From positions 320,402 through 384,401 of the forward strand of contig CAVQQI010000010.1 of assembly GCA_963714875.1 (NCBI GenBank): a stretch of 64,000 bases of DNA, read 5' to 3'. Positions 33,280-63,011 of this stretch are shown in pieces. The number at the start of each line of letters is the position of its first letter. Positions within the stretch are counted from its first letter, which is position 1. Source of the DNA: an uncultured Microthrixaceae bacterium (GTDB lineage: Bacteria; Actinomycetota; Acidimicrobiia; Acidimicrobiales; Microtrichaceae). The translations under genes were made by a program, and so were the position numbers. The notes under the pieces were generated by a model that saw nothing but the letters and a program-made list of their open reading frames with translations, was not told the origin of the DNA and made no database searches.

Positions 33280-33494
33280 CGGGCATCAGCGGCGATGAGC
33301 GGACCCTACCTCTCGGTCACCCGATGTCCGGGGGGCGCGCGACGGCACAGCGCGACGTGCGTTCCGGTCGGTCGCGACCTGCTGCGTGGTCGGGAACGTG
33401 GCGCCACGTTCGCGACGTCGCGGATGGCCGGCGCGTGCCTTGCGGTCATGCGATCGACTCGTACCCTCGACTGGCCGAGAGGGTTGGGGGACAG

Positions 33495-35802
33495 ATGGCT
33501 GTGCGGGCAAGTTCGATCTCGATCGCGTTGGTGGCTGTCGTGCTGCTGGCGGCGTCCTGCGGGACGCCGACCACATCCCAACCCCCCTGCGCCCCCCGAC
33601 GGTGGCTACACGCTTCCCACCGATCCGACGGCGGACACGCCCGAGTTGGTCACCTACTGCGGTGGCGAAGTGGTCGAGCTCGGCCCCTTGGAGCCGTCGG
33701 TCATCGCTGCGTCGATCCGGATGGCGAAGCCCGACCTGTTCGACGGCGAGATCGCTCGTATGGTCGAACGCGCTGATGGAAACCCACTCATCGCCGAGAT
33801 GCTCGTTGCGGCAGCTGACGACAGCCCGATCGGTCCTCCGGCGGCGCATTCAAAGGTGCTGGCGGCGGCGCTGGCCCGCCAGTCCGGAGCCGCGCGGTCG
33901 ACGTTGTTCGCCCTCGGCGCGGCGCCCGGGCCGCTGCCGGTCGATCTGCTCGAGGATGTGGATGCTCTGGAGGGTGCGGGCATGGTCCGCCGCACCGCGG
34001 ACGGGTGTTGTGAGCTGGCGAACCGGATCTTTGCGAGCCCAGGACTCCTCGAGGTGGGTGATGCCGAGCGCAGAGCGGTGTTCGAGCGGCTCGCCGGCCT
34101 ACCCGGCATCGGCGCCCAGCAGCGCTCGGAGTACCTGCTTGCCGCTGGCCAGCTGACGCGTGCGATGCGCGACGCGCTCGCAGTTGCGAGTGGGCCGATC
34201 TCGCGTGCCGAGCAGGCGAGCGTCCTGCTGGTCGCCGACGGGAGCGCGCAGCAGCTGCATGCGAAGGGAGAGATTCCGTCGTCGGAGCTCGACCCGCTGC
34301 TCGCTGGCGCGGCCCGGGCGCTCAACGACAGCGCCCGCTTCGCAGAGTCCGGGGAACTGCTCGACGGCGCCGATCATGGCGGTGGACCACTCACGATCGC
34401 TGTCGTCGTGGAACGTCTGCGAGCAGCCCTCGGGATGGGCGACCGGCGGCGGGCCGGTCGGCTCCTGCACGAGCAGCGTTCGCTCATCGACGAGGCCGTC
34501 GGGATGGACGGAGTCCGGGCGCGCAGGCTGCGCAACACGCTGACGCTGTCGTCGTCGACGGAACGCGAGCTCGGAGCGCCCGCCGATGGGCAGCTCGACG
34601 CCTCGACCGACGCCGCGCAACGGGCACAGGCGGCGATCGTTGCGGGTCTGGCCACGTACTCCGTCGATATCGACGTTGCGATGAAGTGGTTCAGCGCAGC
34701 GCGGGAGGAGGCGGCGAGTAGTGGTGAGCTGGCATCCGAGCTCGATGCGACCCGCAATCTGGTGTCGGTCCAGATCGCCCTGGGTCGCCACGGTGAGGCA
34801 CGGGCGACGGCACGCGCAGCCGAATCGACCGCTGCGCGTGCGGGCGAGGCGTCATGGGCGATCGAGTTCCGGACGCTCGAGGTGCTCAGCCGGTTCTATG
34901 ACGAGGTCGACCACGACGATGCGCTCTCCTGGCTCTCGTTCGTGCGCACTGCGCCGGTCCGGCTCGAGACCCGTGCCATGGCGACCGCCGCGTTGGCGAC
35001 ACTGCTGGCTGATCGTGGCGCTTCGCAGCGCAGCCAGGAAGTGCTGGGGCCGTGGATGCAGGAGGTGCACCTGAACGAGCTCGGCCCGTTCGTCCAGGCG
35101 TTGATCGCGTGGGGCGCTGCGCAGCGGTCGTGGATCGTCGGCGACCTCGCCGAGACGATCCGGATCGCACGTTGGCTCACCGACACGGTGCCACCGGGCT
35201 ACCCGTCGGTCGCCGGGACCCAGGTCGTGTGGCGGTGGGCGGAGTACGAGTCCGGACTGCCGCTCACCGCGCCCGATCCGGTCGGGGGTCTGCTCGACTG
35301 CGCCATGATCGAGTCGGCCGCGATCGAGATGCTCGCCGACGGTCGTGCTGCGGATGCGGCCGAGGGGTTCATCGCAGCAGCCGACTCGTGGCGGCCGATC
35401 CTCTGGCGGTGTGCGCTGCGGTGTCGGTGGGCCGCCGGCCACTCCCTGGCCCTGATCGGCGACAGAGATACCGCGATCGACATGCTCGACGGCGTGGACG
35501 CCGAACTCGACCTGGCTGGTCTGCCGGCCCTGCGTCCTCGAATCCGGTCATCGTTGCGATTGGCGGCCCGACCGTCGACGACCTCGTCGTCGTCGCCCGG
35601 CCCGCGAGGCACAGCTCTGCTGACCGCGCAGGAGCACAAGGTGATGTTGCTGGTCGTCGAGGGGCTGACGAGCGGGGAGATCGCACGTCGTCTCGGGATC
35701 GCGACCTCGACGGTCGAGTCCCATGTCCGCAGCGCGAGGCGGAAGCTCGGCGCACGCACCCGAATCGAAGCAGCGGCGATGGTCGGGCTGCAGGCCGGAT
35801 GA
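33495..35802 (+). CDS. large LuxR-family regulator (LAL-like helical/TPR region + C-terminal GerE/LuxR HTH) without a recognisable P-loop; N-terminus uncertain
   Basis: C-terminus LTAQEHKVMLLVVEGLTSGEIARRLGIATSTVESHVRSARRKLG. An out-of-frame upstream segment from ATG 33495 reads like a lipoprotein signal (MAVRASSISIALVAVVLLAASCG) and joins the main frame at a C-homopolymer near 33590. An alternative start is ATG 33721. Confidence 0.6.
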
Positions 35803-36246
35803 TCAGGCGTTCGGGCGGAGCTCATCGATACGACGACCGATGATCGACACCGCCTCTGCGCGGGAGCGGGCGCCGAGGGCGTGTCGGGCATCTGCGAGTC
35901 TGCGGGCGGCGGTGCGAGCACTCAGGTGGTGACGTCGAGCGGCCTGTTCGATGTCGTCCCCGGACCGGACGGCGAGCAACAGCGCCAGCTGCTCGTCGGT
36001 CAACCGGTCGGCCAACGGCCGGTGGGTGTGGTCGAACCACTCGGCGGTGGCGACCCGCCGACACTGATCGAACAGGTCGGTCGCCATCGCCCGGTCGGTG
36101 GCGAGCACTGCGACAGAGACTCCTGACATCAGCAGATCCACGATCCCGGCGATGTCGATTTCCGTGCCGCCTCGACGATGCACACCGTGTGTGCGGCGCT
36201 CCGCCGCCCCGGGCCCGCCGGGTCGGCCGGGGTCGAGGGTATCCAT
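35803..36246 (-). CDS. small LuxR/GerE-type HTH regulator
   Basis: C-terminus LTDEQLALLLAVRSGDDIEQAARRHHLSARTAARRL. Converges on the large LuxR gene. Confidence 0.5.
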   Translation of the reverse strand: MDTLDPGRPGGPGAAERRTHGVHRRGGTEIDIAGIVDLLMSGVSVAVLATDRAMATDLFDQCRRVATAEWFDHTHRPLADRLTDEQLALLLAVRSGDDIEQAARRHHLSARTAARRLADARHALGARSRAEAVSIIGRRIDELRPNA

Positions 36247-36664
36247 CCTGCAGCCAGGAACTCTCGCCTCACGCCGGCGAGCGCGAGTTCGTCGGCACAC
36301 ACGCAGATACGTCCGGACCGGGCCCACGGGGAGTGATCATGGTGGGGATCGTTCACGGCCAGCCTTGTGATCCCACGCGCGTGTCGCAGTGGCAGGAATT
36401 GAGGATGCTAGCGGTGGCCTCGGCGGGCATCGTGAACGCAGGCAGTTTCGTGGGTGTCCGCCTCGTGGGCGCCGGCTGCGCCGAGTCGTCGGCGCTGGAT
36501 CGCGGGTCCTGTTCTCCGGTGGATGCGCCCCATCGCCGGACAACAGGACCCGCACGGGCTGTGCAACATGCTGGGCCCGCTCGTGGACACGCTGTGTCGG
36601 TGACGGCCGCAGCACCTCGTCCGCCCGACAGGTACCCGGCGATGGCAGGTGCCCAGTCCGTCGC

Positions 36665-38314
36665 TCAGAAGATCCGGTCCACGTCGTGGCGCACGATGTG
36701 GTCGATGTTGCGCTCCGCGAGGGCAGCGATGGTGAGCGACGGATTGGCGCACGCGGTGGAACCGGGGATGAGCGCGCCGTCGTTGACGTACAGGCCACGC
36801 TGGCCGAGCACCCGGCCATGGTCGTCGCAGACCTTGCCGATCACCGCACCGCCGAGCGGATGGAACGTCGTCGGGTCGATCGCGGTCATGTCGATCGACC
36901 CGATCGCGCCCGCTGCGGTCCCCACCCGTGCGACACGCCGCCGGGCCTCCTCCATCGCAGGTCCGTGTGCGCTCGCGGGGAAGTCCAGCCGGGCCTCGTC
37001 ACGGATCGGGTCGTAGCGGAAGCTGCCGTGGCCGTCGGGGAGGAAGATGCCGACGGTCTCCATCACGTTCGCCTCGAACGGGATCGGGAGCGGAGCGAAC
37101 AACACGGTGACCGGCCCGGCCGGGTTGTCCCAGTCGAGTGATCCGATGCTGGCCGGGCCCCCCTGGAGAGTTCCCATCGGGGTCGACAGGAGCTGCGTGG
37201 TGATCAGGTCGCCGTTGGTCGACCACCATCGGCCGACGTCGTCGGGCAGGTCCGGGATGTCGTCGGTTCCGTCGGCGCGCACGAGCAGCTTGGTCGTGTT
37301 CGGCGAGCCGGCGCACAGGAACAGGGCGTCGGCGACCAGCTCCACGTGCTCCCGCACGACCCCGTCCAGGTCCAGTCGGTCGGTGGAGACCACCCAGCGG
37401 CCGTCGCCGTCGCGCTGCACCCGTTCGACGCGGTGCAGCGCCAGGAGCTCGACGCGGCCGGTGGCTTCCGCCGCGGGCAGGTAGTTGGTGTCGAGGGACC
37501 GCTTGCCGGGTCCGTTCACCCCGTAGATCACGTCGCCCGACGAGATGCTCCTGGGGAGCTCGCCGCGGATCTCCCGGCGCACGACGTCCCAGTCGATGGG
37601 CATCGGGACGCCCTCCGCATCGGGGAGCCCGGCGGCCCGCACGAACTCGGCGAACCGCCGACTCGACAGGTAGGGCGCCGACGCGAGCACGTCGGCGGGG
37701 ATCGGCGACGCGCCGAGGTTCTGTCGCACCAGCGGGTACCAGCGGTCGTCGAACTCCTCGTAGTCGAGTGCGTCGGGCATGACCCGGTCGAACAGGTCAG
37801 CTCTCGGCTGCACCGTCATGCCGTGGTACGGCAGGGAACCGCCGCCGACCGCCGCTGCGCACACGATGTCCATGCCCCGGCCCTTGATGCGCTCGAGCAG
37901 CCCCGTGTACGGCTGCCACGGCAGGGAGGGGACGAAGTTGCCCGCGGCGGTGTTCTCCGGGCTCAGCCAGGAGACCCGACGGTCGGCGCCGAACATGGTC
38001 GGGAACGTCCCCCGCTCCCCGCTGCGCCACCGCTTGCCCCGTTCGATGAGGGTGACGTCCACACCGCGCTCGGCGAGGCGGAGCGCGGTGACCGATCCTC
38101 CGAACCCGGTCCCGACCACGACCACCCGCCGGCGCTCGGACCGGCGGCCGGGGCGTGGCAGAGGGGCACATGCGGTCCCGATGAGCCCGGCGCCGGCGGC
38201 TGCGAGTGCACCGCCCAGCACCCCTCGCCGGCTGATCGTCACGTCTCCAGACACGCCCACCCACCGTCCGCCCGTCGAAGGGCCGACGGTACGGGGCGGG
38301 CGGTGGTCGTTCAA
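36665..38314 (-). CDS. Tat-exported GMC-family FAD oxidoreductase (cholesterol-oxidase-like)
   Basis: Twin-arginine signal ISRRGVLGGALAAAGAGLIGTACA. FAD motif VVVVGTGFGGSVTALRLAERGVDVTLIERG. GMC C-terminal region present. Confidence 0.85.
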   Translation of the reverse strand: MNDHRPPRTVGPSTGGRWVGVSGDVTISRRGVLGGALAAAGAGLIGTACAPLPRPGRRSERRRVVVVGTGFGGSVTALRLAERGVDVTLIERGKRWRSGERGTFPTMFGADRRVSWLSPENTAAGNFVPSLPWQPYTGLLERIKGRGMDIVCAAAVGGGSLPYHGMTVQPRADLFDRVMPDALDYEEFDDRWYPLVRQNLGASPIPADVLASAPYLSSRRFAEFVRAAGLPDAEGVPMPIDWDVVRREIRGELPRSISSGDVIYGVNGPGKRSLDTNYLPAAEATGRVELLALHRVERVQRDGDGRWVVSTDRLDLDGVVREHVELVADALFLCAGSPNTTKLLVRADGTDDIPDLPDDVGRWWSTNGDLITTQLLSTPMGTLQGGPASIGSLDWDNPAGPVTVLFAPLPIPFEANVMETVGIFLPDGHGSFRYDPIRDEARLDFPASAHGPAMEEARRRVARVGTAAGAIGSIDMTAIDPTTFHPLGGAVIGKVCDDHGRVLGQRGLYVNDGALIPGSTACANPSLTIAALAERNIDHIVRHDVDRIF

Positions 38315-38535
38315 GCGGAACCCGCGCCCCGTCGTCGGGCCACCGTGCGCAGAGATCGTTGCGCGCGCCAGTGGTGCGGAGCATCATGACAGCCGGGTCG
38401 ACGGCAGGCGGATCCGATCGGTGTCACGGGCGACCGTGCTCGCAGCTGCCACGCTGATCGGGGGTGCGCCCTCGAACGCCGTGCAACCCAGCACGCACGT
38501 GCTCGCGTCGCCCAGATCGAGGTCCCTGCCGCTGG

Positions 38536-40458
38536 CTACCGCTCGTTCCTGGCCAGCCAACCCTGCAGCGCCGACCGGGTCGCGTCGCAGGCCACCTCGA
38601 AGGCGTCCAACAGCTCGGGGTCGGGTGGGAACGGACTGTCCTCGAGCTGCTGGCTGAGGCGGTCCAGCTCGACCGCCCCCAACGTCCGACAGGTCGACCG
38701 CAACGTGTGGGTCGTCCGTGTCAGGCCCTCCGGGTCGAGCGCTCCGACCGACTCGGCGACGGCCCGTCGACGGTGCTCGAGCTCGACCAGGAACGTCCCG
38801 ACGATGGACACCACGGGCACCACCGATCCGAGCTGGTCCACCAACAGGTCGAGCGCATCGGTGTCGGCCGGGGCACCGTCGACCATCTCTCCCGAGCGCG
38901 GCCGGGACCGCCGTTCGCCGATGTAGGGCTGCAACGCGTGTCCCAGCTCGAGGAGCCCGACCGGCTTGACCAACATCAGGTCCATGCCTGCCGACAGACA
39001 GGTGGTGCGGTCCGAGGCTCTCCCACTGGCGGTCATCGCGATGATCGGGACCCGGTGTCCGGGCGCTTCGAGCGACCGGTGCAGCCGCGTCGTCTCGACA
39101 CCGTCCAGGCCGGGCAGCTGCCAGTCCATCAGCACGCAGTCGATGTCGTGGTCGCCCGACAGCGCGTCGAGCGCCTCGTTGCCCGTACCCACCACGGTCG
39201 TGCGGGCACCCAGACGTGCCAGCTGCTCCGCGACCAGCATCTGGTTGACCGCGTTGTCCTCGACGACCAGCACGTGTGCGCCGCCGCGGGCGCGGACCGG
39301 ATCGCCGGTCGGGCGGTCGGCCGCGTCGCCGCCGACCTCGTAGGGGATCTCGACGGTGAAGCGTGACCCCTCGCCCGGTGTCGACTCGACCCGGATGCTC
39401 CCGCCCAACAGGTCGACCAGACCCGATGTGATGGCGAGCCCCAGGCCCACCCCACTGGTTCGGTCTCCCTGGGAGCCCTGGTCGAAGGGGTCGAAGATGC
39501 GTTCCAGGTCCGAGGCGTCGATGCCCCGTCCCGTGTCGGTCACGGTCCACCGCAACCCGACGCAGTCCTGTCGTCGGCACAGCGACACCCGCAGCACGAT
39601 GCGACCCGACGAGGTGAACTTCGCCGCGTTGGTGACCAGGTTGGCCAGCACCTGGCGGACCTTCGCCCCGTCGATCAGGACCGTGTCGGGCACGTCCTCG
39701 TCGCTGTGCCCCTCGACGACCACGCCGTCGACGGCGAGCTCGCGGCCGAGTGCGGTCGCGTCGGAGAGCAGCTGACGCGCCAGTGTGGGTTCGGGTCGCA
39801 GCGGGTTCCGAGCGGCGTCGGTCCGGGAGTACTCGAGCAGCTCGTCGACCAGGTGCTGGAACGCCTGCGCCTGTCGATGGGTCGAGTCGACGAGGCGGCG
39901 GGACGACCAGGGCAGGTCGGCCTCGCCGAGCAGTTCGGTGAGGCCGCGCAGCGCGTGGAGCTGGTTGCGCAGTTCGTGGCTGACACGCGCGAGCAGCTCG
40001 GAGCGGAGCCGGGACTGCTCGACGGCCTCGTCGCGTCGGAGGGCCAGCTCGGCCTCGATCGCCTTGCGGGCGGTGATGTTGCGAGAGGTGATCACGATTC
40101 CTGCGACCAGTGGGTCCTCGAGCAGGTTGACCGCGGTGAGCTCGATGTCGGCCCACGACGAGTCCGACTGCACGACCCGGACGTCGATGGTGACCTGCTC
40201 CCTCGGTCGTTGCAGCACGAGCTCGCGGGTGGCCAGCAGGCGCGGCAGGTCGTCGGGGTCGACCAGGTCGAAGATGGACCGCTCGCGCCAGTAGTCCGGC
40301 TCGTAGCCCATCACCTGCGCGTGGAGTCCGGTGGTGTCCAGCACGTGGCCGTCCGCGTCGACCAGCGTGACCGTGTCGCTGATGTTGGCCAGCATCGCCT
40401 GCATCCGGCGCAGCGCCTGCTCGTCGCTGTCCGACCGGGTGGTCGACACGATGCTCAT
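38536..40458 (-). CDS. cytoplasmic hybrid sensor histidine kinase (PAS - HisKA - HATPase - REC - HPt-like)
   Basis: H-box VSHELRNQLHAL. N/G boxes NLVTNAAKFT...DTGRGI...GVGLGLAI. Receiver HVLVVEDNAVNQ...LMDWQLPGLDG...IIAMTA. C-terminal helical region consistent with an HPt domain. No TM segments. Confidence 0.9.
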   Translation of the reverse strand: MSIVSTTRSDSDEQALRRMQAMLANISDTVTLVDADGHVLDTTGLHAQVMGYEPDYWRERSIFDLVDPDDLPRLLATRELVLQRPREQVTIDVRVVQSDSSWADIELTAVNLLEDPLVAGIVITSRNITARKAIEAELALRRDEAVEQSRLRSELLARVSHELRNQLHALRGLTELLGEADLPWSSRRLVDSTHRQAQAFQHLVDELLEYSRTDAARNPLRPEPTLARQLLSDATALGRELAVDGVVVEGHSDEDVPDTVLIDGAKVRQVLANLVTNAAKFTSSGRIVLRVSLCRRQDCVGLRWTVTDTGRGIDASDLERIFDPFDQGSQGDRTSGVGLGLAITSGLVDLLGGSIRVESTPGEGSRFTVEIPYEVGGDAADRPTGDPVRARGGAHVLVVEDNAVNQMLVAEQLARLGARTTVVGTGNEALDALSGDHDIDCVLMDWQLPGLDGVETTRLHRSLEAPGHRVPIIAMTASGRASDRTTCLSAGMDLMLVKPVGLLELGHALQPYIGERRSRPRSGEMVDGAPADTDALDLLVDQLGSVVPVVSIVGTFLVELEHRRRAVAESVGALDPEGLTRTTHTLRSTCRTLGAVELDRLSQQLEDSPFPPDPELLDAFEVACDATRSALQGWLARNER

Positions 40459-41189
40459 CGGGCCACCGCCCGCCCGGGGCGCCCGTCGCCACCCTCGGTC
40501 ATCGGCTCGGGCGCCGGCTGGTGCATCCCGTAGCCCACGCCGCGCACGGTGCGGATCCTGTGGATCCCCGGCCGATCGATCTTGCGGCGGAGGTTGGCGA
40601 TGTGGACGTCGACGACGTGGTCGTCATGGATCCAGTCATCGCCCCAGACCCGCTCGCACAGCGCCTGTCGTGACAGCACCCGGTCGGTGTGCTCGCTCAA
40701 CGCGTCGAGGATCGCGAACTCGATCCGGGTCAGCGGCACCTCGTCGCCGTCGACGGTGCACCGGTGCGCTGCGGGTTCCACGACCAGCGTGCCGATGCGG
40801 CGCTCGGCCGACGTCCGGGCGCTGCGGTCACCGCGACGCCGCATCATCGCCTCGACCCGGGCGAGGATCTCCCGGGGTGAGTACGGCTTGGTGACGTAGT
40901 CGTCGGCGCCGAGCTTCAGGCCCAGCACCTTGTCGATCTCGTCGTCGCGAGCCGTCAGCATGACGACGAACGCGTCGGAGAACGTCCGCAGTTCGCGGCA
41001 CACATCGGTGCCGTCCATGTCGGGGAGACCGAGGTCCAACAACACGACGTCGGGGCGCAGGGCGCTGGCAGCGGTCAGGCCCGCGCGGCCGGTCGACGCG
41101 GAGCTGGTCTCGAACCCCGCGCTGCGCATCACCGCCGACGCGAGCTCCGCGGCGTCCGGTGCATCCTCGATGATCAGCACGCGCGTCAT
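40455..41189 (-). CDS. OmpR-family response regulator (REC + winged-helix)
   Basis: MTRVLIIEDAPD...VVLLDLGLPDMDG...VVMLTARDD...YVTKPYSPREL. wHTH region VRGVGY. Its stop overlaps the hybrid-kinase start by 4 nt. Confidence 0.9.
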   Translation of the reverse strand: MTRVLIIEDAPDAAELASAVMRSAGFETSSASTGRAGLTAASALRPDVVLLDLGLPDMDGTDVCRELRTFSDAFVVMLTARDDEIDKVLGLKLGADDYVTKPYSPREILARVEAMMRRRGDRSARTSAERRIGTLVVEPAAHRCTVDGDEVPLTRIEFAILDALSEHTDRVLSRQALCERVWGDDWIHDDHVVDVHIANLRRKIDRPGIHRIRTVRGVGYGMHQPAPEPMTEGGDGRPGRAVAR

Positions 41190-42078
41190 GGCTGCACCGT
41201 CGTGTCCGGGCCACAGGCCGGTCCCGCGGGCACCGTCGCGGTGACGACGAGTCCGCCCTGGTCGGAGATCTCGGCCCATGCGTCGCCGCCCATGCAGGCG
41301 GTGAGTCCCGCGACGATCGCCAGACCGATGCCGGAGCCGCCGACCACCCGGGCGGTGCCGTTCTCGAGCTGGACGAACGGCTCGAAGATCCTGCTCAGCT
41401 CGGCCCGGTCGACGCCTGGTCCCTCGTCCTCGACCTGGAGCTCCACCCGGTCGCCGTGGGCGGAGAGACGCAGGTGCAGGGTTCCGGGCATGGCGAACTT
41501 CTGGGCGTTGGACAGGAGCGCGTCGCCGATCTGCGTCAGCCGATCGGGGTCCACCAACGCCGCGCCCCCGGAGTCGGGCACCAGCAGGAGCCCACGTGCG
41601 CGCAGCGGGTTGGCCCAGCGGTCCACCAGCTCGTCGGCCACGGCGTCGAGGTCGGTGGGGATCGGGTCCACCTCGATGCTGCCCACCTCGGTCTGGGCCA
41701 GTTCGAGGAGGTTGTCGAACAGGGTGCAGAGCTCCTGGGTCGCGGCGGCGGCCAGCTCGATGCGACCTGCGTCGTCCGCATCGCTGGTCCGCACCAGCTC
41801 CAGCGCGGACAGCACGGTCTGCAGCGGTGTGCGGACCTCGTGACCGAGGTTGGCCAGGAAGGCCGTCTTCGCCGCCGCGGCCGACTCGGCGCGGTCGTGC
41901 TCGGCACGGAGCTGGCGGGTGCGTTCCTCGACCCTGGAGTCGAGCTCGGCGGTGGCCTCCCAGAGTCGTCGGAGCCCGGCCTCCGCGATGCGTTCGCTCT
42001 CCAGGCGCGCCGCACGCTCGCGCGACCAGCGGCGTTCCATCAGTGCCGCGTCGTGTGCGAGCGGGGTCTCAGACGTCA
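41186..42078 (-). CDS. soluble histidine kinase (coiled-coil + HisKA + HATPase), H-NOX-associated
   Basis: H-box LANLGHEVRTPL. HATPase N/G boxes GTLHLRL...DEGPGV...GGSGIGLAIV. No TM helix. Overlaps the response-regulator start (41186/41189) and the H-NOX stop (42069/42078). Confidence 0.85.
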
Positions 42079-42677
42079 TGCCCGGTCTCCGTGCGCACCC
42101 GCAGGACACACCGGTCCCCACCCTCGAGCGCGCACTGCGTCTGCACGACCTCGGCGGTGGTGGCGAAGCTCGCCGCCGCACCCTGGACGAGCCCCTCTGC
42201 CAGGTGGCAGAGCCCTCGATCGGAGCGGTAGACGAGCTCCCAGCATCCGGGGCCGAGATCGGTCACCGAGAACTCGGGCGGGGCTGCGTCGGCGTACAGC
42301 TTGTGCACCTCCGGGTGGATCACGTCCTCGAGCTGGTGCAGCAACGCCCCCAGGTCGGCGATGCCGGCCACCAGGGACGGTTGACGTCGGACCAGGGGCT
42401 CGTAGCCGTGGCGCCCGACGTGCCGGAGCACCTCGGCGGGGTCGAGGCCGCTCGCCGCGGCGATCGCGTCGACGATGGCGTCCAGCTCTGCGTGGGGGTA
42501 GTCACCGAGGGAGGTGTAGATGCCCTCGACGCACGCATGGTGGAGCGCGGCGTCCCACGCAGCAGCCCCGAGGGTCTGGTCGACCACGTCCTCGGTGACG
42601 TTGAACAGCACGCCTTTCACGTCCACGCTCCTCGCAACCGGCCCGATCCGCGCGTCTGCGCCCGACCGGGCCGCCAT
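42069..42677 (-). CDS. H-NOX (haem nitric oxide/oxygen-binding) domain protein
   Basis: KGVLFNVTEDVV... N-terminus. Proximal-His region LEDVIHPEVHKLY...AAPP. Invariant Y-x-S-x-R reads WELVYRSDRGLCHLAEGLVQGAA. AAGGAG RBS 7 nt upstream of ATG 42677. 203 aa. Confidence 0.85.
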   Translation of the reverse strand: MAARSGADARIGPVARSVDVKGVLFNVTEDVVDQTLGAAAWDAALHHACVEGIYTSLGDYPHAELDAIVDAIAAASGLDPAEVLRHVGRHGYEPLVRRQPSLVAGIADLGALLHQLEDVIHPEVHKLYADAAPPEFSVTDLGPGCWELVYRSDRGLCHLAEGLVQGAAASFATTAEVVQTQCALEGGDRCVLRVRTETGHDV

Positions 42678-42723
42678 CTCCTTGCATCGGCTCGTACCGG
42701 GGCGACTTGAGCAACCCGCTGCA

Positions 42724-43818
42724 TCAGGGGGCACACGGCGGTGCACCAGCGCGCGACGACGGGGTCGCAGGGGCGGGCGCCTCGACGGGCGAGAGCAGCA
42801 CCCAGGCCGAGCCGACCCGGCCAGCCATCTCGGGTGGCAGCTGGTCGACCGGCACGGCGAAGGACCCCGGGGCCCAGCCCACCGTGAGGTTCGGTACGGG
42901 CTGTGCTGTCGGTGCAGGCGGCGCGTGGTGGGCGCACGGGGTGGGTGTCGGGACCTGCACGACGATGACCTGCGGCGGCGCGGCTCCGGCGGTGTGGGGG
43001 ACCGGCGGCGGGACCTGGACGAACGGTGGCGGGGTCGACCGGGGCGGCGGCGGATCCCCGGGGGTCGCCTCGGCGGGCACGTCGACCGGCACATCGACGG
43101 ACGGCGCTGCGTCGCGGGATGGCGCTGTGTGGTCGGACGGCGCTGTGGGGTGGGGTGGAGCGCTCCGGGCCGGGCCGGGGGCGGCCGCCGCGAGCCGGGC
43201 CGCACGTCGGTCGAGCAGGGTCTGACCGACGTAGATCGAACCCGGAACCAGGATCAGCAGCAGGGTGCCGAGCCCGGTCGACAGGAAGACCATGGTGCGA
43301 CCGACCTTCGGGATCGAGAACCAGCGGGTCCCGAGGACGTCGCGGGCCTTGGTGGTGAACGGGTCCTCGGTGTCGTTCGCGTCGCCCTTCGTCGAGAACG
43401 TGTCGCCGTTGTCGCTGACCTTCGTCACCCGGTGCGTGACCAGCGTGTTGTCCGCCGAGGGCACCCGGAAGGTGATCACGTCACCCCTCCTCACGGTCCG
43501 GGGGTCGACGTCGCGGCTGATGAGCAGGTCGCCGGGCTCCATCGAGGGGGCCATCGAGCCGGTGCGGATCGCGAGGAGCTCTCCGCCGGAGAACCGCAGG
43601 ACGGTCATCGCCACGAAGACCACCAGGGCGAGGCTCATCACCAGCGTGAGCAGCAGGCCGCCGACGCGGCTGAGCCGGCGTCGCGCCGAGCGGTGCCCGG
43701 CAGAGGGGAGCGGCGACGGCGGCGGGGTGCGGTCCCGGGCGAGGTGGTCGCGGGAGTGGTGATCAGCTCTGGGACGACGGACATGGCGGGCAGCTCCTGG
43801 TTCGGTCCGGGCCGGCAC
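42724..43818 (-). CDS. sipW: SipW-type (S26B, ER/archaeal-type) signal peptidase I with Pro-rich C-terminal extension
   Basis: TM helix, then LAIRTGSMAPSMEPGDLLISRDV (catalytic Ser box) and DVITFRV...LVTHRV (His box). Long PxP-rich tail. Confidence 0.8.
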   Translation of the reverse strand: MPARTEPGAARHVRRPRADHHSRDHLARDRTPPPSPLPSAGHRSARRRLSRVGGLLLTLVMSLALVVFVAMTVLRFSGGELLAIRTGSMAPSMEPGDLLISRDVDPRTVRRGDVITFRVPSADNTLVTHRVTKVSDNGDTFSTKGDANDTEDPFTTKARDVLGTRWFSIPKVGRTMVFLSTGLGTLLLILVPGSIYVGQTLLDRRAARLAAAAPGPARSAPPHPTAPSDHTAPSRDAAPSVDVPVDVPAEATPGDPPPPRSTPPPFVQVPPPVPHTAGAAPPQVIVVQVPTPTPCAHHAPPAPTAQPVPNLTVGWAPGSFAVPVDQLPPEMAGRVGSAWVLLSPVEAPAPATPSSRAGAPPCAP

Positions 43819-43966
43819 GTCGGCGGCACGTCGGCGGTGCGACAGCGGTGCGGTGGATCAGCGGTGGGTGTGGCGGGAACCGGGGCGATCAGGGACGCCT
43901 GATCAACGTGGTGGGCCCGGTGGGGCGGACGAGCCGCCCCACCGGGCCTGGGTGTGTGCTGGGAGC

Positions 43967-44545
43967 TCAGTTGCCGGCGTTGTCGCCGTTGTCGATCTCC
44001 TGGCCGGCCAGCTGCGAGGCGTCGACCTGGAAGTCGAACCCGACGCTGGCGCCCTGGTACTTGTTGTCGATCTCCGGCGCGTTCTCGGGCCAGCTGATCG
44101 CCACTTCGTAGGCGGTCGCCTCACCCGATTCGAGTCCGGCGGCGATGGGCTCCAGCTCGGACAGCTTCGAGCCCTTGGCCAGCTCCTTGCCGTCCTGGGA
44201 GACCGTGACCACGAGCACGTCGTCGAGGGCGCCGTCGACGTTGATCGCGTCGAGGGCGAAGTCCTCGGTGAGGGAGCCGGTGTTGATGACCTGGACCTTC
44301 TGGGTCGTGGTGTCACCGGGCTTCATGTTGCCGACCTCGAAGTACCGGGCATCCTGCCCGAACGCGACGTCGAGGGTGCCGGAGGAGATCTCGTTGTCGG
44401 TGTTCGCGTCCTGGGCGGTGAACCCTGCCAGGGTGGCGACGCCGGGTGCGGCGGCGACCAGGCCGGTCAGGACCAGGCCGACGGCGAGGCCGCGACGGTG
44501 GCGCCTGCGTGCCGGTGCGGGGGTGGTGTCGAGGGTGGTGTCCAT
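43967..44545 (-). CDS. TasA/CalY/camelysin (peptidase M73)-family secreted protein with SipW-cognate signal peptide
   Basis: LAVGLVLTGLVAAAPGVATLAGFTAQDANTDNEISSGTLDV aligns with the TasA N-terminus AAFND...ASGTLDL. NMKPGDTTTQKVQVINTGSL matches NLKPGDKLTKDFQFENNGSL. NKYQGASVGFDFQVDASQ matches NKYQGNSIKLQFSFEATQ. Confidence 0.8.
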   Translation of the reverse strand: MDTTLDTTPAPARRRHRRGLAVGLVLTGLVAAAPGVATLAGFTAQDANTDNEISSGTLDVAFGQDARYFEVGNMKPGDTTTQKVQVINTGSLTEDFALDAINVDGALDDVLVVTVSQDGKELAKGSKLSELEPIAAGLESGEATAYEVAISWPENAPEIDNKYQGASVGFDFQVDASQLAGQEIDNGDNAGN

Positions 44546-45085
44546 TGCTCTTGCTCTCCTTGGGTTGGTCCGGTGGTTCCGGATCGCAGCGGCGTTCGCC
44601 GGCGCAGGAATCACTGTCGGGGACCCACCTCAAGACCACAGGAGGTCGAACCTCAAGATCTGCTCAAGTCCTCGGTACGGGTCCCGGTCCGGTCCGGTTC
44701 CGGTGCGGGCCCCCCGCCCGAGAGCGCACTGGCGACAGCGGCCTGGCGTGGGGACGGACACCATGTCGGGTCCGTCCGGAACCCGCACGCTGTTGGAGAT
44801 CGACCGGGCCAACCCCGACTGGAGCCTCCAGAGCGGACCGGTCTGGTCAGCCGACTTCGCCTGGGTCATGACCTGGGACGGGCGCCTGCTGCTCACCACC
44901 GACGGCAAGGAGCCCAGCGACACGCGTCCTGGCCGAGGGAGCATCGTGGTCGCCGTACGGCGAGGAGGTCCCGAACTTCTCGATCCTGGGCGACGACGTC
45001 GAACTCGGCTGAATCTGCGCCGTTCAGGAACTCGATCTCCCGAGCAGCACACGCAGCGTCGGACGTGGGATCGAAGGAGCGCTGG

Positions 45086-45130
45086 CAGAGCCCGAGAGGA
45101 GAATCGAACTCCTGACCTGCTGTTTACAAG
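45086..45130. repeat. attL/attR-type direct repeat: 45-bp exact copy of the 3' half of tRNA-Thr (identical to 62936-62980)
   Basis: Exact 45/45 identity (cagagcccgagaggagaatcgaactcctgacctgctgtttacaag). Flanking sequence diverges immediately on both sides. Confidence 0.8.
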
Positions 45131-45337
45131 TCGTGGGTCGAGTGTCCACCGAGTGCCGTTCAGGCCCGCCAGGTCGCGGAATCTGCGTCGACGTCTCACG
45201 TGATTCAACCGCTGATATCCGTGGTCGTCCAGAGATTCGTGAGACAAACCGTGAGACGCGATGCCTACGAGGTGGCGGACTACTCGAGGTCTCCAGCCGG
45301 GAACGGTGAGACTGGGTTCGGGTGGCCCCAGGACGCG

Positions 45338-46321
45338 ATGATGGACGCTGTGGAGGACTTCGTCGTCGCCCGGAATCCGGATGGGGATTCGGGGTTGCCG
45401 TATCTGGTTCGGCTGCCGTTGGGCGCTCACGGTGTGGTGCTGAAGGTGCGCGACACGTGGCCGCGCACCGCGAAGGTGTACTGCCACCCGTCGCAGGACT
45501 GGGACGACTCGGTCGAGGTGGTGGAGCGGGTGCCGGTGCGCTCGTGTGTGCGTCGCGGCGCGGCGATCGACCTGGTGCTGGACCGAGGCCGGGAGAACCG
45601 GTCGCAGTTCGTCTTCACCCGGGCTCGTGGTCGCGAGGTGATCTTCTGGCAGAGCGCTCGTACTGCGAAGCAGGCCCGGCCCGCAGTGAGCACGCCGACA
45701 CGACGCGCGTCCGGGTTGGTGCTCGACATCCTGGTCGACAGCCACGAGCGGTATCCGTGGAAGTTCAGCGCGCAGCAGGCAACGACCCGTCGGCAGGCGT
45801 TGCCGGCAGGTGACTACGCGGTCGAGCATCGACGGTCGGCGTCGTCGCCGCGGTCGAGCGCAAGAGCTTGGCGGACCTGTCCTCGACGTTGACGACCGGC
45901 AAGCTGCGCTACCTGCTCGCAGCGCTCGACGAACTGCCTCGTGCCGCGCTGGTGGTCGAGGACCGCTACTCGGCGGTGTTCAAGTCGACGTTCGTCGTCA
46001 CCGGGTGTGCTGGTCGAAGGTCTGGCCGAGGCGCAGGTCCGGTTCCCTGCGGTGCCGATCGTGTTCTGCGAGACGCGACCGTTGGCACAGGAGTGGACCT
46101 ATCGGTTCCTCGGCGCCGCGCTGGCGCATCACGCCGAGGACGCGCCGGCCGCCGAGCGTGCCGCGGAACTCCCGGCGGCTGGTCCGTTGGCGCCAGCGGA
46201 GCCGACCGCTGCGGAGATCCGTGCCTGGGCGAACGCCAACGGCCACCCGGTCTCCGCGAAGGGGCGCATCCCGGCGTCGGTGCGAGCGGCGTTCGACGCG
46301 TCGCGACGACGGCCGGGCTAG
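45338..46321 (+). CDS. ERCC4/XPF-like nuclease-fold protein fused to a C-terminal Lsr2-like DNA-binding domain (frame-interrupted)
   Basis: GDYAV...ERKSLADLSSTLTTGKLRYLLAALDELPRAALVVED gives an ERK-type nuclease motif. C-terminus PTAAEIRAWANANGHPVSAKGRIPASVRAAFDA resembles the Lsr2 C-terminal domain. Split over frames 45200, 45868 and 45941. Confidence 0.5.
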
Positions 46322-48260: not shown

Positions 48261-49523
48261 TCAGGCGTGGGGCGTCGGGAGTTCCGCCTTGCGCGACTTC
48301 AGCTGTGCCACCACCGCGGCGGTGAGCAGGTGCGCGGTGACGACGGCGATCGCGATCGGGGCGGCGGTGAGGGGGCCGAGGCCGATGGACAGCACGGCGA
48401 TGAAGGTCAGGCCGATCGGGGCCTTGATGGTTGCTCCCGGCACGGCGGCCAGCATGGCGCCGACGGCGATGGCGTAGGGGATGTCAGGGATCGCGAGGTG
48501 GATCATCACGCCGGCCGTTCCACCCACGAACAGCATCGGGAGGACGTTGCCGCCGATGAACCCTGTCGCCAGGCTGAGCGCCATCGCCACCATCTTCCCG
48601 ACGACGACCGCGGCGAGCATCCAGAGGCTGATCGACGCGGAGTTGTCGATCACGGTGGTGAGCTGGTCGTTGCCGGCACCGACGGTGAGGGGAAGTGCGA
48701 CGGCGATGAGGCCGACCAGCGCTCCGCCAACCACGCCGCGCACGAGCTGGTTCGGCACCTTGTCGGCCGCCGCTTGGACCAGCTTGACGATGACGACGAA
48801 CGCGATCATGAGCACGCTCGCGGTGATGCCGAGGCCGACGCCCATGAGGAGCTGTGTGACGCGGAACTCCTCGACGGGGATCGCGAAGCTGTTGAGGAAC
48901 GTCGTGCCGACGACTCCGAAGAACACGGCGAAGGCCACGGTCGCGGCGATGAGCTGGGCCAGGATCCCTTCCATGTAGCGCTGCTTGGGAATCGGGGCGA
49001 GCTCGCTGACGATCAGGGTGCCCAGGCCCGGAGAGGTGAACGCTCCGCCGAAGCCGCCGGAGATGCCTGCCATCGTCGCGTCGAGGCGTGCCGACTCGTT
49101 GCCGGGCCACCATCGGGACGCGATCCACGAGCCGAGGCCTCCGCCCATCATGATCAGGGCGAACGACGGGCCGAGGCTGGCTCCGGCGACCGCCGAGACC
49201 GCCGCCAATCCCACCCACGATGCTGCGACCCGATGGTCGACCTCGCCGGACTCGATGACGGCGACACCCCCGGGGACGTGCTCGGGGACCTTCCACCAGC
49301 CGCGCAGCGCGGTGACGATGAGGCCTCCGGCCGCGGTGACGGCGATCCACCACCAGTCACCGGACCATGCGTCGATCCGGGGGTCGCCGAAGACCAGGTC
49401 GGTCACCTTGCCCGTGGCTCCGAGATAGGCGAGGCCGAGCAGCCCGACGATGAGGCCCATGACGCCCGAGGCCACCAGCAGCTGCCGGTACCACGGCGTG
49501 TCGATCGGTATCGGCGTCGCCAT
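48261..49523 (-). CDS. ClC-type voltage-gated chloride channel / H+-Cl- antiporter family protein
   Basis: ~10 TM helices with GASLGPSFA and GGxxGxxxP segments typical of ClC selectivity regions. RBS-like gaggggaca precedes ATG 49523. Confidence 0.6.
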   Translation of the reverse strand: MATPIPIDTPWYRQLLVASGVMGLIVGLLGLAYLGATGKVTDLVFGDPRIDAWSGDWWWIAVTAAGGLIVTALRGWWKVPEHVPGGVAVIESGEVDHRVAASWVGLAAVSAVAGASLGPSFALIMMGGGLGSWIASRWWPGNESARLDATMAGISGGFGGAFTSPGLGTLIVSELAPIPKQRYMEGILAQLIAATVAFAVFFGVVGTTFLNSFAIPVEEFRVTQLLMGVGLGITASVLMIAFVVIVKLVQAAADKVPNQLVRGVVGGALVGLIAVALPLTVGAGNDQLTTVIDNSASISLWMLAAVVVGKMVAMALSLATGFIGGNVLPMLFVGGTAGVMIHLAIPDIPYAIAVGAMLAAVPGATIKAPIGLTFIAVLSIGLGPLTAAPIAIAVVTAHLLTAAVVAQLKSRKAELPTPHA

Positions 49524-49548
49524 CGTCTGTCCCCTCAGTACCTGGTGA

Positions 49549-51297
49549 TCACTCGATCGGGCGGCGAGGATGCAGCGTTGCATGCCGTTGGACCGCGGCG
49601 TCGATGTTGTCATGGACGCGATCGCGGTCCACCAGTTCGAAGAACCCGTCGCGTTCCAGCACCTCGAGGACCTGCGACTTCACCCGCGCGAGGTGCAGGT
49701 CGATGTCGTGGTCGATGCCAGCCTGAGCGATCGCGATCAGGACGTCGGCCCCTTCGGCGTCGATGAAGTTGACACCCTCCATGCTCAGGATCACCCCGTC
49801 GATCCCGGTGGGCGTCTCGACACGGATCTGGCGCAGGCGGTCGGACAGCGCGTCGGCGTTGACGAAGAAGAGGCCGCCGTCGAAGCGCAGGATCTTCACT
49901 CCGGGGATCGTCTCGCAGTCGTCGTGCTGTTCCAGGTCGTAGAACGCGTCGGTTCCGGGCTTGCGTCCCAGCTCCGGGATGTAGGGCAGCGCCGAGACGG
50001 CGACGAGCCAGATGATGGAGATTCCGACGCCGATGAAGACGCCCTGGAGGATGCCGAACGTCATCACTCCCAGAAGGGCCGCCAGGGCGGCCGCGAACTC
50101 GTAGGGCTTGACGAGGATCAGGCGTTTCATCTCGCCCACGTTCATCATCCCCAGCGTCACTGCTTGGATGATGACCGCGCCGAGGACCGCCTCGGGCAGG
50201 TTGGAGAAGAGCGGGGCGAGGACGAGCAGGGTGAGGATGACGAATCCCGCCTGGGCGAGGCTCGATACCTGTGACCTGGCGCCTGCGCCGTCGTTGACGG
50301 GGCTCTTGGAGAGGCTGCCGTTGTTGAAGACCCCCTGAAAGACGCTCGACGCGACGTTGGACATGCCTTGCGCGAGCAGCTCCTGGTTCACGTCGACCCG
50401 ATAGTTGTGCTTGGTCGCGTACTGGCGCACACCCGCGGTCGTCACCGAGAACCCGATGAGGACCAGCCCGACGGCAGCCCCGATCACCGTCTCCCAGTTG
50501 TCGACGATGAGCTGGAGGTCGGGGATCGACGGCGTCGGGAATCCGCGTGGGACCTCTGCCACGAGCGCGACGCCGCTGTCACCTAGGCCCCACACAACGG
50601 TCACGGTGATGCCCACGACCACCGCGACGAGCTCGGCCGGAACCTTCGGTGCCAGGAACTTGAGGCTGAACAACAACACCAGGGCCGCCCCACCCAGCAG
50701 GACGGTGGTCCGATTCGCCTCGGGGAGACTCGCCCCCCAGTTCCACAGCTTCTGCCATGTGTTCGAGCCGGACTTCTCGGTTCCCGTGAGCTTGAACAGC
50801 TCGCCCGAGACCACGTTGATGGCGACGCCGAAGATGAATCCCGTGAGAACGGCCGCCGACAGGAACTCCGCGATCCACCCCATCTTGAGCACCGCCATGA
50901 CGACGTACAACAAGCCCGCCACCAGCACCACGGCGGCCGCGATCGCCACCGCATCCTCGGAACCCGCTGCTGCGATGGACAACACCGCCGCACCCAGCAC
51001 CGGGGCGGTCGACGAGCCCGGGGTCTGCACCAACTGCTTGGAGGTCGTGAACAGCGCGAACGCGATCATGCCGAACGCAGCGGCGTACAGGCCGTTCTGG
51101 ACGGGCACGCCGCTCAGCGACGCGTAGCCCAGCGACGTCGGGACCGTCAGCGCCCACACCGACAGCCCGGCGATCACGTCGTTCTTCAACCACGACCGCT
51201 GGTAGTTCGGCAACCAGACCAGGCTCGGGATGAACCGCCTGATCGAACCGGGCTGCTCCGGCGCTCGTGCGGTGCTGGGTGCGTCGTCGGGTGTCAT
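49549..51297 (-). CDS. SulP-family anion (sulfate/bicarbonate) transporter with C-terminal STAS domain
   Basis: WLPNYQRSWLKNDVIAGLSVWALTVPTSLGYASLSGVPVQNGLYAA signature region. STAS region: GVILSMEGVNFIDAEGADVL. Confidence 0.9.
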   Translation of the reverse strand: MTPDDAPSTARAPEQPGSIRRFIPSLVWLPNYQRSWLKNDVIAGLSVWALTVPTSLGYASLSGVPVQNGLYAAAFGMIAFALFTTSKQLVQTPGSSTAPVLGAAVLSIAAAGSEDAVAIAAAVVLVAGLLYVVMAVLKMGWIAEFLSAAVLTGFIFGVAINVVSGELFKLTGTEKSGSNTWQKLWNWGASLPEANRTTVLLGGAALVLLFSLKFLAPKVPAELVAVVVGITVTVVWGLGDSGVALVAEVPRGFPTPSIPDLQLIVDNWETVIGAAVGLVLIGFSVTTAGVRQYATKHNYRVDVNQELLAQGMSNVASSVFQGVFNNGSLSKSPVNDGAGARSQVSSLAQAGFVILTLLVLAPLFSNLPEAVLGAVIIQAVTLGMMNVGEMKRLILVKPYEFAAALAALLGVMTFGILQGVFIGVGISIIWLVAVSALPYIPELGRKPGTDAFYDLEQHDDCETIPGVKILRFDGGLFFVNADALSDRLRQIRVETPTGIDGVILSMEGVNFIDAEGADVLIAIAQAGIDHDIDLHLARVKSQVLEVLERDGFFELVDRDRVHDNIDAAVQRHATLHPRRPIE

Positions 51298-62935: not shown

Positions 62936-62980
62936 CAGAGCCCGAGAGGAGAATCGAACTCCTGACCTGCTGTTTACAAG
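62936..62980. repeat. second copy of the 45-bp att direct repeat (within the tRNA-Thr 3' half)
   Basis: Exact identity to 45086-45130. Confidence 0.8.
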
Positions 62981-63011
62981 ACAGCTGCTCTGCCAACTGA
63001 GCTACTCGGGC
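62939..63011 (-). tRNA. tRNA-Thr: tRNA-Thr (anticodon UGU)
   Basis: Manual fold. 7-bp acceptor stem GCCCGAG/CTCGGGC. D-arm GCTC-AGTTGGCA-GAGC. Anticodon stem-loop GCTGT-CTTGTAA-ACAGC. T-arm AGGAG-TTCGATT-CTCCT. 73 nt. CCA not encoded. Confidence 0.85.

Follow-up and report, generated by a model that had tools for sequence, protein, structure and literature searches.

An H-NOX two-component cassette and a TasA/SipW-type gene pair as a candidate two-unit regulon in an uncultured actinobacterium

In a 64,000-nucleotide (nt) stretch of DNA from an uncultured Microthrixaceae bacterium (contig CAVQQI010000010.1, positions 320,402 to 384,401; hereafter the window), six minus-strand genes at 38536-44545 bring a haem nitric oxide/oxygen sensor (H-NOX) and its phosphorelay next to a TasA-like secreted protein and a SipW-type signal peptidase. 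The question raised by this locus is whether the sensor controls the secreted protein and, if so, by what route. The original prediction answered it with one operon-like unit of six genes, through which nitric oxide (NO) or O2 would control matrix production. The reading favoured here, to which a probability of about 0.6 is attached, is a regulon of two transcription units: a signalling cassette, in which H-NOX with its HnoK-like kinase and a PAS hybrid kinase feed an OmpR-type regulator, would control both itself and the tasA(-sipW) unit through copies of a ACCTCAAGA repeat.

Profile searches with Pfam and NCBIfam placed each of the six genes, in a window of ~70% G+C, in the family that had been named for it. 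Four of them form the signalling cassette: hnoX (42069-42620, minus strand like the others; 183 amino acids (aa), HNOB), a soluble HnoK-like histidine kinase (41186-42079; 297 aa, HisKA and HATPase_c), an OmpR/PhoB-family response regulator (40455-41189; 244 aa, a REC domain and the winged helix Trans_reg_C) and a soluble hybrid kinase (38536-40458; 640 aa, PAS-HisKA-HATPase-REC-Hpt). These four genes do overlap, by 11, 4 and 4 nt and not by the 4-10 nt first described, the 11-nt overlap being that of the hnoX stop and the kinase start. Upstream lie tasA (43967-44545; a TasA/camelysin-family secreted protein of 192 aa with an N-terminal signal anchor and a Peptidase_M73 match) and sipW (42724-43818; a signal peptidase I of the archaeal/endoplasmic reticulum type, TIGR02228 and Peptidase_S26), the exact start of which is uncertain. 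With corrected starts, tasA and sipW are 148 nt apart and sipW and hnoX 103 nt apart.

The order hnoX-kinase-OmpR regulator-PAS hybrid kinase, with short gaps or overlaps, recurs in approximately 20 distinct loci of one clade, a count that covers every cassette locus long enough to show it (compared loci from other genomes and assemblies are labelled with L-numbers). The cassette is conserved in an actinobacterial, Microthrixaceae-like clade, and the other H-NOX loci, whether from actinobacteria or not, show partners of other kinds. The kinase immediately follows hnoX in every full-length cassette locus. It consists of a coiled coil of ~65 aa followed by HisKA and HATPase_c, with no sensory domain of its own, and no transmembrane segment lies in either kinase beyond the catalytic domains (in the HnoK-like kinase, the ATPase G2 box); TasA and SipW do have such segments. 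Hydrophobicity and gene position thereby agree with the HnoK-type partner free of transmembrane helices that had been predicted, and the domain assignments agree with the predicted multi-component relay. The regulator (Response_reg, E 4e-26; Trans_reg_C, E 1.6e-23) is the sole DNA-binding protein of the cassette, and its orthologues are 58-88% identical in all cassette loci. Since its best equivalog models in NCBIfam (CreB, MtrA) all scored below their cut-offs, no named orthologue can be assigned to it.

One line of evidence for the regulon is a short element found upstream of both sets of genes. In most cassette loci, (A/G)ACCTCAAGA lies upstream of hnoX in the sense orientation, 40-95 nt before the start codon; L001, L002, L003, L004, L007, L082, L091 and L099 have it in the same position and orientation, as a tandem pair 11 nt apart in L001 and L082 and as two copies 20 nt apart in L004. 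In the window, a single weaker copy (GTTGCTCAAGTCGC; 42702-42715, minus strand) occupies the sipW-hnoX gap, sense to hnoX and 82-95 nt upstream of its GTG at 42620. Upstream of tasA are three direct repeats of the element (44625-44672, plus strand), antisense to tasA and 84-123 nt upstream of its ATG, with 14-mers at 44625-44638, 44648-44661 and 44659-44672 and cores 23 and 11 nt apart. This triplet pattern, CTTGAG-N5-CTTGAGGT-N15-17-CTTGAGG, is located 85-130 nt upstream of the first cargo gene, in the orientation opposite to that of the hnoX copies. It precedes tasA in the window, L091 and L175, with two copies and a degenerate third in L071/L172, and precedes the gene for a small secreted protein in L085, L088 and L092. 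L175/L176 combine the triplet upstream of tasA with one copy upstream of the regulator gene, and a degenerate triplet precedes the tasA of L171, which has no cassette beside it, an observation consistent with regulation in trans.

By several measures the element is exceptional. The exact 9-mer has just two copies in the 64-kb window, each of them upstream of tasA, and the tandem pattern with at most one mismatch matched once in the window, against 0.02 matches expected. Exact tandem matches among 170 loci were confined to ten cassette loci, always at hnoX or at a cargo or associated gene. A weight matrix trained solely on hnoX-upstream sites of other genomes had its best match in the window at 44648, upstream of tasA (22.2 bits; the next match outside the locus scored 15.6), and 22.2 bits was reached by none of 300 Markov-simulated 64-kb sequences (mean maximum 14.0, standard deviation 1.9). 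As no cargo site and no site of the window was used in training, this test is not circular. The ACCTCAAGA repeat is, as far as could be found, a new sequence among operators.

The triplet upstream of tasA is therefore proposed, from these sequence comparisons, as a candidate operator for the OmpR-type regulator of the cassette. No other DNA-binding protein is encoded by the genes that all loci share, L175 without H-NOX among them, and this argues for the regulator as the binder; so do the direct repeats spaced 11 nt, the classic geometry of OmpR/PhoB sites, which would fit dimers of that family. LuxR-type neighbours were considered as alternative binders and rejected, since they are not conserved beside the cassette elsewhere.

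A mechanism can be outlined on this basis. The H-NOX, a predicted haem protein with an apolar distal pocket of the NO/CO type and a putative three-cysteine redox site, would control autophosphorylation of the soluble HnoK-like kinase, the NO-bound form modulating the kinase as the Shewanella and Vibrio systems would suggest by analogy. The PAS hybrid kinase would serve as a second input, or as a phosphate sink through its own REC and Hpt domains, and the two branches together would set the phosphorylation of the single OmpR-family regulator. The regulator would bind the 11-nt-spaced direct repeats, the copy upstream of hnoX giving autoregulation of the cassette and the three copies upstream of tasA(-sipW) giving control of the second unit. 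From that unit, the SipW-type peptidase would cleave and mature the TasA-family subunit, which would form extracellular fibres, and a hairpin that follows tasA (described below) would let the subunit outnumber the peptidase.

Three further observations concern the element and other regulators. The LuxR-type neighbours of the window (33295-36327) are a MalT/LuxR-type regulator (835 aa, plus strand) and a helix-turn-helix protein (174 aa, minus strand), situated just past a GMC oxidoreductase downstream of the cassette. In L083 alone, a gene for a 129-aa protein consisting of sigma-70 region 4 only (11039-11428, minus strand) lies between the hybrid kinase and sipW; it is preceded by a full repeat triplet (11499-11545) and might belong to the regulon itself or act as a secondary regulator. 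In L001, a very strong element (AAACCTCAAGATCC, 19291-19304, 21.6 bits) is found ~100 nt upstream of a secreted CAP-domain gene (19395-19907), 4.8 kb from a cassette that has no SipW in its vicinity, which hints that the regulon reaches other secreted proteins.

The second line of evidence is recurrent adjacency. A SipW-type peptidase gene was found directly beside the cassette in four arrangements. In arrangement A (window, L081, L091), tasA-sipW lies upstream and co-directional; in A' (L098), the upstream co-directional genes encode two ~130-aa secreted proteins, a CBM96/DNRLRE protein and SipW; in B (L071, L172-174), tasA-sipW-tasA2 follows co-directionally, 74 nt after the hybrid kinase; and in C (L083-88, L092, L096), SipW, a CBM96/DNRLRE protein and two small secreted proteins are encoded downstream and convergently. 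These neighbours were located through precomputed Pfam tables and a small SipW hidden Markov model (HMM), and the SipW-type peptidases of L088 and L083 scored 71-77 bits against TIGR02228. A tblastn search with SipW and TasA of the window placed such neighbours in L071 and L081 alone, a result that the Pfam tables and the SipW HMM identified as a false negative. The window and L071 have no other flanking genes in common. In a rough neighbour-joining tree of H-NOX, kinase and regulator, arrangement A falls beside C, and B and A' fall in another clade together with lineages that have no SipW. The SipW HMM had zero matches in 140 other H-NOX loci (1.65 Mb). In the reverse test, made from TasA orthologues, one orthologue proved to belong to arrangement B, one (L175/L176) to lie behind a regulator and a hybrid kinase only, and two (L171 and L177) to have no cassette in the available sequence. 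Adjacency in four arrangements, together with the common upstream repeat, lends comparative support to the proposal that the gas-sensor relay is functionally tied to TasA and SipW.

In L175/L176, only the regulator and the hybrid kinase, with identities of 64% and 52%, precede tasA-sipW-tasA2, with neither H-NOX nor an HnoK-like kinase. The persistent core therefore comprises regulator, hybrid kinase and SipW cargo, and H-NOX with its kinase forms an input module present in most lineages; because L175/L176 keep the core without H-NOX, the H-NOX branch would be an input added to it. The comparison further shows that, in these bacteria, one conserved control module goes with SipW clusters of exchangeable cargo.

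The cargo proteins of the window belong to their families at some distance from the Bacillus prototypes. The TasA-like protein matched Peptidase_M73 (PF12389; E 2.7e-11, 44 bits against a cut-off of 22.5) over residues 25-93 only, and B. subtilis TasA (8aur/5of1) with an E-value of ~5e-6. Its score against the NCBIfam TasA equivalog was 39, far below the cut-off of 450, which makes it a member of the family but no orthologue of B. subtilis TasA. Its hydrophobic segment (residues 18-43) is followed by the motif A-x-L-A-G-F-T-A-Q-D...G-T-L-D-V, as in a SipW-type signal peptide, with the sipW gene adjoining; all members of the tight TasA orthologue group share AAAPGVATLAGFTAQD-N-DN-I--GTLDV after the hydrophobic anchor. 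An AlphaFold model built from 18 sequences was of moderate confidence (predicted local distance difference test score, pLDDT, 60.6; residues 68-176 mostly >70), and its top three fold matches in the PDB were TasA structures (5of1/5of2; template modelling score ~0.46). Matches of the protein to RecA concatemers in the PDB, returned by phmmer, were set aside as artefacts of repeated weak matches.

SipW scored 88.4 bits against TIGR02228 (cut-off 51.85) and matched the SipW model with an E-value of 3.7e-20, in addition to Peptidase_S26. It reached 72 against the Bacillus SipW equivalog, below the cut-off of 190, and so is likewise a family member and not an orthologue of Bacillus SipW. Its hydrophobic windows fall within residues 48-197 and peak at 56-74. 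Its C-terminal extension of ~160 aa (42724-43200) is proline-rich, and the end segment of this extension (GSFAVPVDQLPP...GSAWVLLSPVEAP) is conserved in L091; in B. subtilis, a peptidase-independent role of SipW has reportedly been assigned to its C-terminus.

Paired genes for secreted proteins of ~130 aa occur in L088 (15667-16540), L083 (12756-13566), L098 (297-1163) and L085 (15672-16482), with the pattern MKRTL..AGLAV.GGV.ASA.SLGGV.S..LGS.A.VV.SCDTDGV.... The pairs are always accompanied by a CBM96/DNRLRE protein and a SipW-type peptidase, with the repeat triplet upstream. These proteins matched no Pfam or NCBIfam family and had no detectable relation to the TasA-like protein (hhalign probability 0.7%), and they may represent a new class of SipW-processed substrates or subunits.

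Could the six genes nonetheless be transcribed as a single unit from one promoter in front of tasA, with expression of the sensor and the matrix genes moving in step? They share one strand with short gaps, and co-directional arrays also exist in L071 and L098. A perfect 15-bp GC-rich stem-loop (43914-43948, minus strand), however, starts 18 nt past the tasA stop (-41.6 kcal/mol, z -4.2, matched by none of 200 shuffles), a predicted terminator, attenuator or mRNA stabiliser. Hairpins with different stem sequences are found 3' of tasA also in L091, L071, L175, L171 and L177, six lineages in all, and this conservation suggests that the hairpin is functional, through termination, attenuation or a stabilisation that favours the subunit. 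Significant RNA structure was found neither in the sipW-hnoX gap, which would suit the operon, nor downstream of the hybrid kinase or in the leader of tasA, and Rfam placed no riboswitch or other RNA near the locus, its one match being a tRNA-Thr at 62938-63011. A scan of 38300-45300 for consensus sigma-70 promoters and T-tailed terminators found nothing, a result that would also suit the operon and that is uninformative for actinobacteria, whose promoter types it does not cover. The sipW-hnoX gap, on the other hand, contains the element characteristic of hnoX promoter regions where the genome has no sipW next to hnoX. In L071 the two gene sets have changed places and in L083-L092 they converge; across other genomes, sipW follows the cassette, faces it or is lacking, so co-transcription cannot be the conserved feature. 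The conserved hairpin, the upstream element of hnoX itself and these rearrangements together make a single obligatory six-gene operon unlikely, as far as sequence can tell, and in this respect the original prediction was not borne out; some read-through between the two units is conceivable.

That the sensor is an H-NOX was upheld by the HNOB profile (PF07700), which matched with 102 bits (cut-off 25.5) over profile positions 1-161 of 163; its best solved relative is the H-NOX of Shewanella oneidensis (4u99/2kii; E 1.2e-23 for 4u99). The YRSDR motif and the proximal His/Pro region that had been read from the sequence were recovered in alignment, the landmarks falling on H103 of the Shewanella protein and on H102, P115, Y131, S133 and R135 of Tt H-NOX, in a sequence whose landmark numbering is correct. 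His102, Pro115, Tyr131 and Ser133 are invariant in both homologue alignments (n=25 and n=28), and Arg135, of the motif Y131-x-S-x-R135, is invariant among the 28 homologues and at least 90% conserved among the 25. The distal Tyr/Trp/Asn network of the O2-binding subclass (Tyr140, Trp9/Asn74) is missing: Leu140, invariant in the clade, stands at the position of Tt Tyr140, and Thr9 at that of Trp9, so the distal pocket would be apolar. In the H-NOX family, an apolar distal pocket goes with binding of NO and CO and exclusion of O2, which fits NO selectivity. O2 sensing by this H-NOX is thus unlikely to judge by its residues, and O2 was not retained as a controlling gas.

Three cysteines (Cys138, Cys163 and Cys171) align with the zinc-site C139, C164 and C172 of Shewanella H-NOX. 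Cys138 and Cys171 are invariant and Cys163 at least 90% conserved among the 28 homologues, and all three are at least 90% conserved among the 25. The histidine of that zinc site, which we take to lie three residues before the equivalent of Cys163, is Gln160 here. These cysteines favour an alternative in which the regulon is real and the H-NOX is a thiol/zinc redox, oxidant, haem or CO sensor in place of an NO sensor, with the PAS hybrid kinase as the main driver. Haem-independent oxidant sensing at the zinc/Cys site has been described for V. cholerae, and a 3-Cys motif has been recorded in the actinobacterial H-NOX group (PMC8738867). The combination of regulator, hybrid kinase and tasA unit without H-NOX in L175 also favours this alternative. 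The invariance of the proximal His, of Pro115 and of the haem-propionate motif YxSxR nevertheless argues for a haem protein, the apolar pocket suits NO, and the zinc-site His has been replaced by Gln; a sensor of something other than NO is accordingly considered quite unlikely.

For the two-unit regulon as a whole, several points must be set on the other side. SipW is missing within 4-10 kb in about half of the cassette lineages whose flanks are long enough (n=8: L001, L002, L004, L007, L009, L082, L089 and L099), two TasA orthologues (L171 and L177) have no cassette in the sequence available, that of L171 having none within 8 kb, and the four arrangements may derive from one ancestral linkage and so not be fully independent. 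The window's own copy upstream of hnoX is weak (12.6 bits) and single. That the element points one way at hnoX and the other way at the cargo genes is unexplained by simple activation, and may reflect opposite signs of regulation at the two promoter classes; the binder itself could be another factor, encoded elsewhere. The glutamine at the fourth ligand position of the Shewanella Cys3-His zinc site and the low confidence of the TasA-like model over its N-terminal 67 residues count on the same side, as does the fact that all functions have been read from sequence in an uncultured lineage represented by metagenome-assembled genomes (MAGs). A coincidental neighbourhood, in which the cassette regulates unrelated targets and the adjacency is a relic of shared ancestry or of local gene shuffling, would accommodate the missing SipW genes, the cassette-less TasA orthologues and the relatedness of the lineages, but it is quite unlikely in view of the four distinct arrangements with otherwise unrelated flanks, the lack of SipW in the 1.65 Mb of other H-NOX loci, and a rare repeat upstream of both gene sets that was found by a matrix trained without cargo or window sites.

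The architecture had been thought uncommon in a high-GC actinobacterium, but H-NOX itself is not rare in Actinomycetota: a scan of species-representative genomes yielded >551 relatives, many from actinobacteria, and they span Microthrixaceae, Ilumatobacter, Nanopelagicales, Micrococcales, Mycobacteriales, Kitasatospora and Mycobacterium. A 2022 review had already recorded actinobacterial H-NOX (in Acidimicrobiaceae, Nocardioidaceae, Micrococcaceae and Mycobacteriaceae), and described the group as uncharacterised and an open area, with no Gram-positive H-NOX reported as an NO sensor as of that year and with no mention of SipW or TasA (PMC8738867). No report linking H-NOX to TasA or SipW was found in the literature searched; actinobacterial H-NOX was already known, and the link to TasA/SipW and the operator had not been noted.

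To our knowledge, Gram-negative bacteria are the only ones in which H-NOX signalling has been elucidated; there it reaches biofilm behaviour through cyclic di-GMP (c-di-GMP) enzymes or quorum-sensing relays. Like HnoX/HnoK of Shewanella oneidensis (with HnoB, HnoC and HnoD) and its V. cholerae equivalent, the locus has a stand-alone H-NOX adjoining a soluble histidine kinase, and the His, YxSxR and Cys positions are those of the Shewanella protein. The Shewanella network is a multi-component relay with more than one receiver; among its outputs is a DNA-binding regulator to which the hno genes themselves also respond, and the outcome of the network is biofilm-related. Unlike those systems, the cassette belongs to a Gram-positive actinobacterium and contains no c-di-GMP enzymes (EAL, HD-GYP, GGDEF). 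It also differs in having an OmpR/PhoB-type regulator and, as an integral fourth member, the gene of an Hpt-bearing PAS hybrid kinase, and in that its proposed direct target is a cluster for TasA/SipW-type secreted proteins. In Vibrio harveyi, H-NOX/HqsK feeds LuxU, and in Pseudoalteromonas atlantica H-NOX/HahK constitutes a hybrid-kinase relay; the cassette resembles both in placing an H-NOX-controlled kinase in a phosphorelay with Hpt and receiver domains that would integrate other signals. There, the H-NOX partner is a hybrid kinase or feeds a shared Hpt protein, whereas here it is a plain kinase, with a separate PAS hybrid kinase and a dedicated OmpR regulator as output.

On the cargo side, the closest parallel is tapA-sipW-tasA of B. 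subtilis, which also sets a SipW-type peptidase beside a TasA-family substrate, and the TasA-like protein agrees with TasA in N-terminal motif and predicted fold. In contrast to B. subtilis, there is no TapA, the order is tasA then sipW with a hairpin between them, and SipW has a long proline-rich tail. Control of the Bacillus genes is exerted by the SinR and AbrB repressors, whereas a two-component regulator acting at direct repeats would apparently take that part here. As operators, the repeats resemble OmpR/PhoB sites (pho boxes) in being tandem direct repeats of 11-nt periodicity, upstream of targets and of the regulator's own operon; they differ in the 11 plus 22/23 spacing of the triplet and in the inverted orientation between cassette and cargo promoters.

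A wider reading, held more tentatively and at somewhat less than even odds, is that the clade possesses a c-di-GMP-independent route from a gas or redox sensor to the matrix in Gram-positives, with two branches, one OmpR regulator, the ACCTCAAGA operator and interchangeable SipW-dependent cargo, possibly including the ~130-aa proteins as a subunit class. The locus and its relatives offer a circuit open to in vitro testing, with a sensor, two kinases, one regulator, an operator and a TasA-family output with its peptidase. Microthrixaceae include floc- and foam-forming sludge bacteria, and some of the related genomes are labelled Microthrixaceae. NO arises from nitrogen cycling in such habitats, and NO-controlled fibres, if they exist, could matter for aggregation, which is speculation.

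The coordinates first assigned to tasA, sipW, the regulator and the hybrid kinase stand, and two starts were revised. The kinase start at 42078 is out of frame and was rejected for 42079. The hnoX start at ATG 42677 (202 aa) was rejected for GTG 42620 (MKGVLFN, 183 aa), which is most likely the true one. An AGGAG lies 7 nt upstream of the GTG, and the ATG directly abuts its AAGGAG with zero spacer. Alignments to the HNOB profile and to the Shewanella protein begin at the GTG-encoded residue, most of 105 database homologues are 176-185 aa long, with the aligned ones beginning M/V-K-G, and a 99%-identical database protein has 183 aa.

The closest relatives of the window are uncultured Actinomycetota and Microthrixaceae MAGs. 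A near-identical contig was found in an independent assembly (L081) and an 85%-identical contig in a JGI metagenome (L091); as both carry the matching contig, the arrangement is not an assembly artefact. Several genes that are intact in the window are split in L081, an independent ENA contig from the same organism, among them SulP (49549-51297), CLC (48261-49613), the regulator and the hybrid kinase; such splits are typical of long-read indel errors, and gene lengths in L081 are not trustworthy. Two open reading frames of the window (45200-45892 and 45941-46321, plus strand) correspond in L081 to one 363-aa gene that fuses ERCC4 to an Lsr2 DNA-binding domain, which points to a frameshift or sequencing error in either assembly. 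The ERCC4-Lsr2 fusion is itself unusual.

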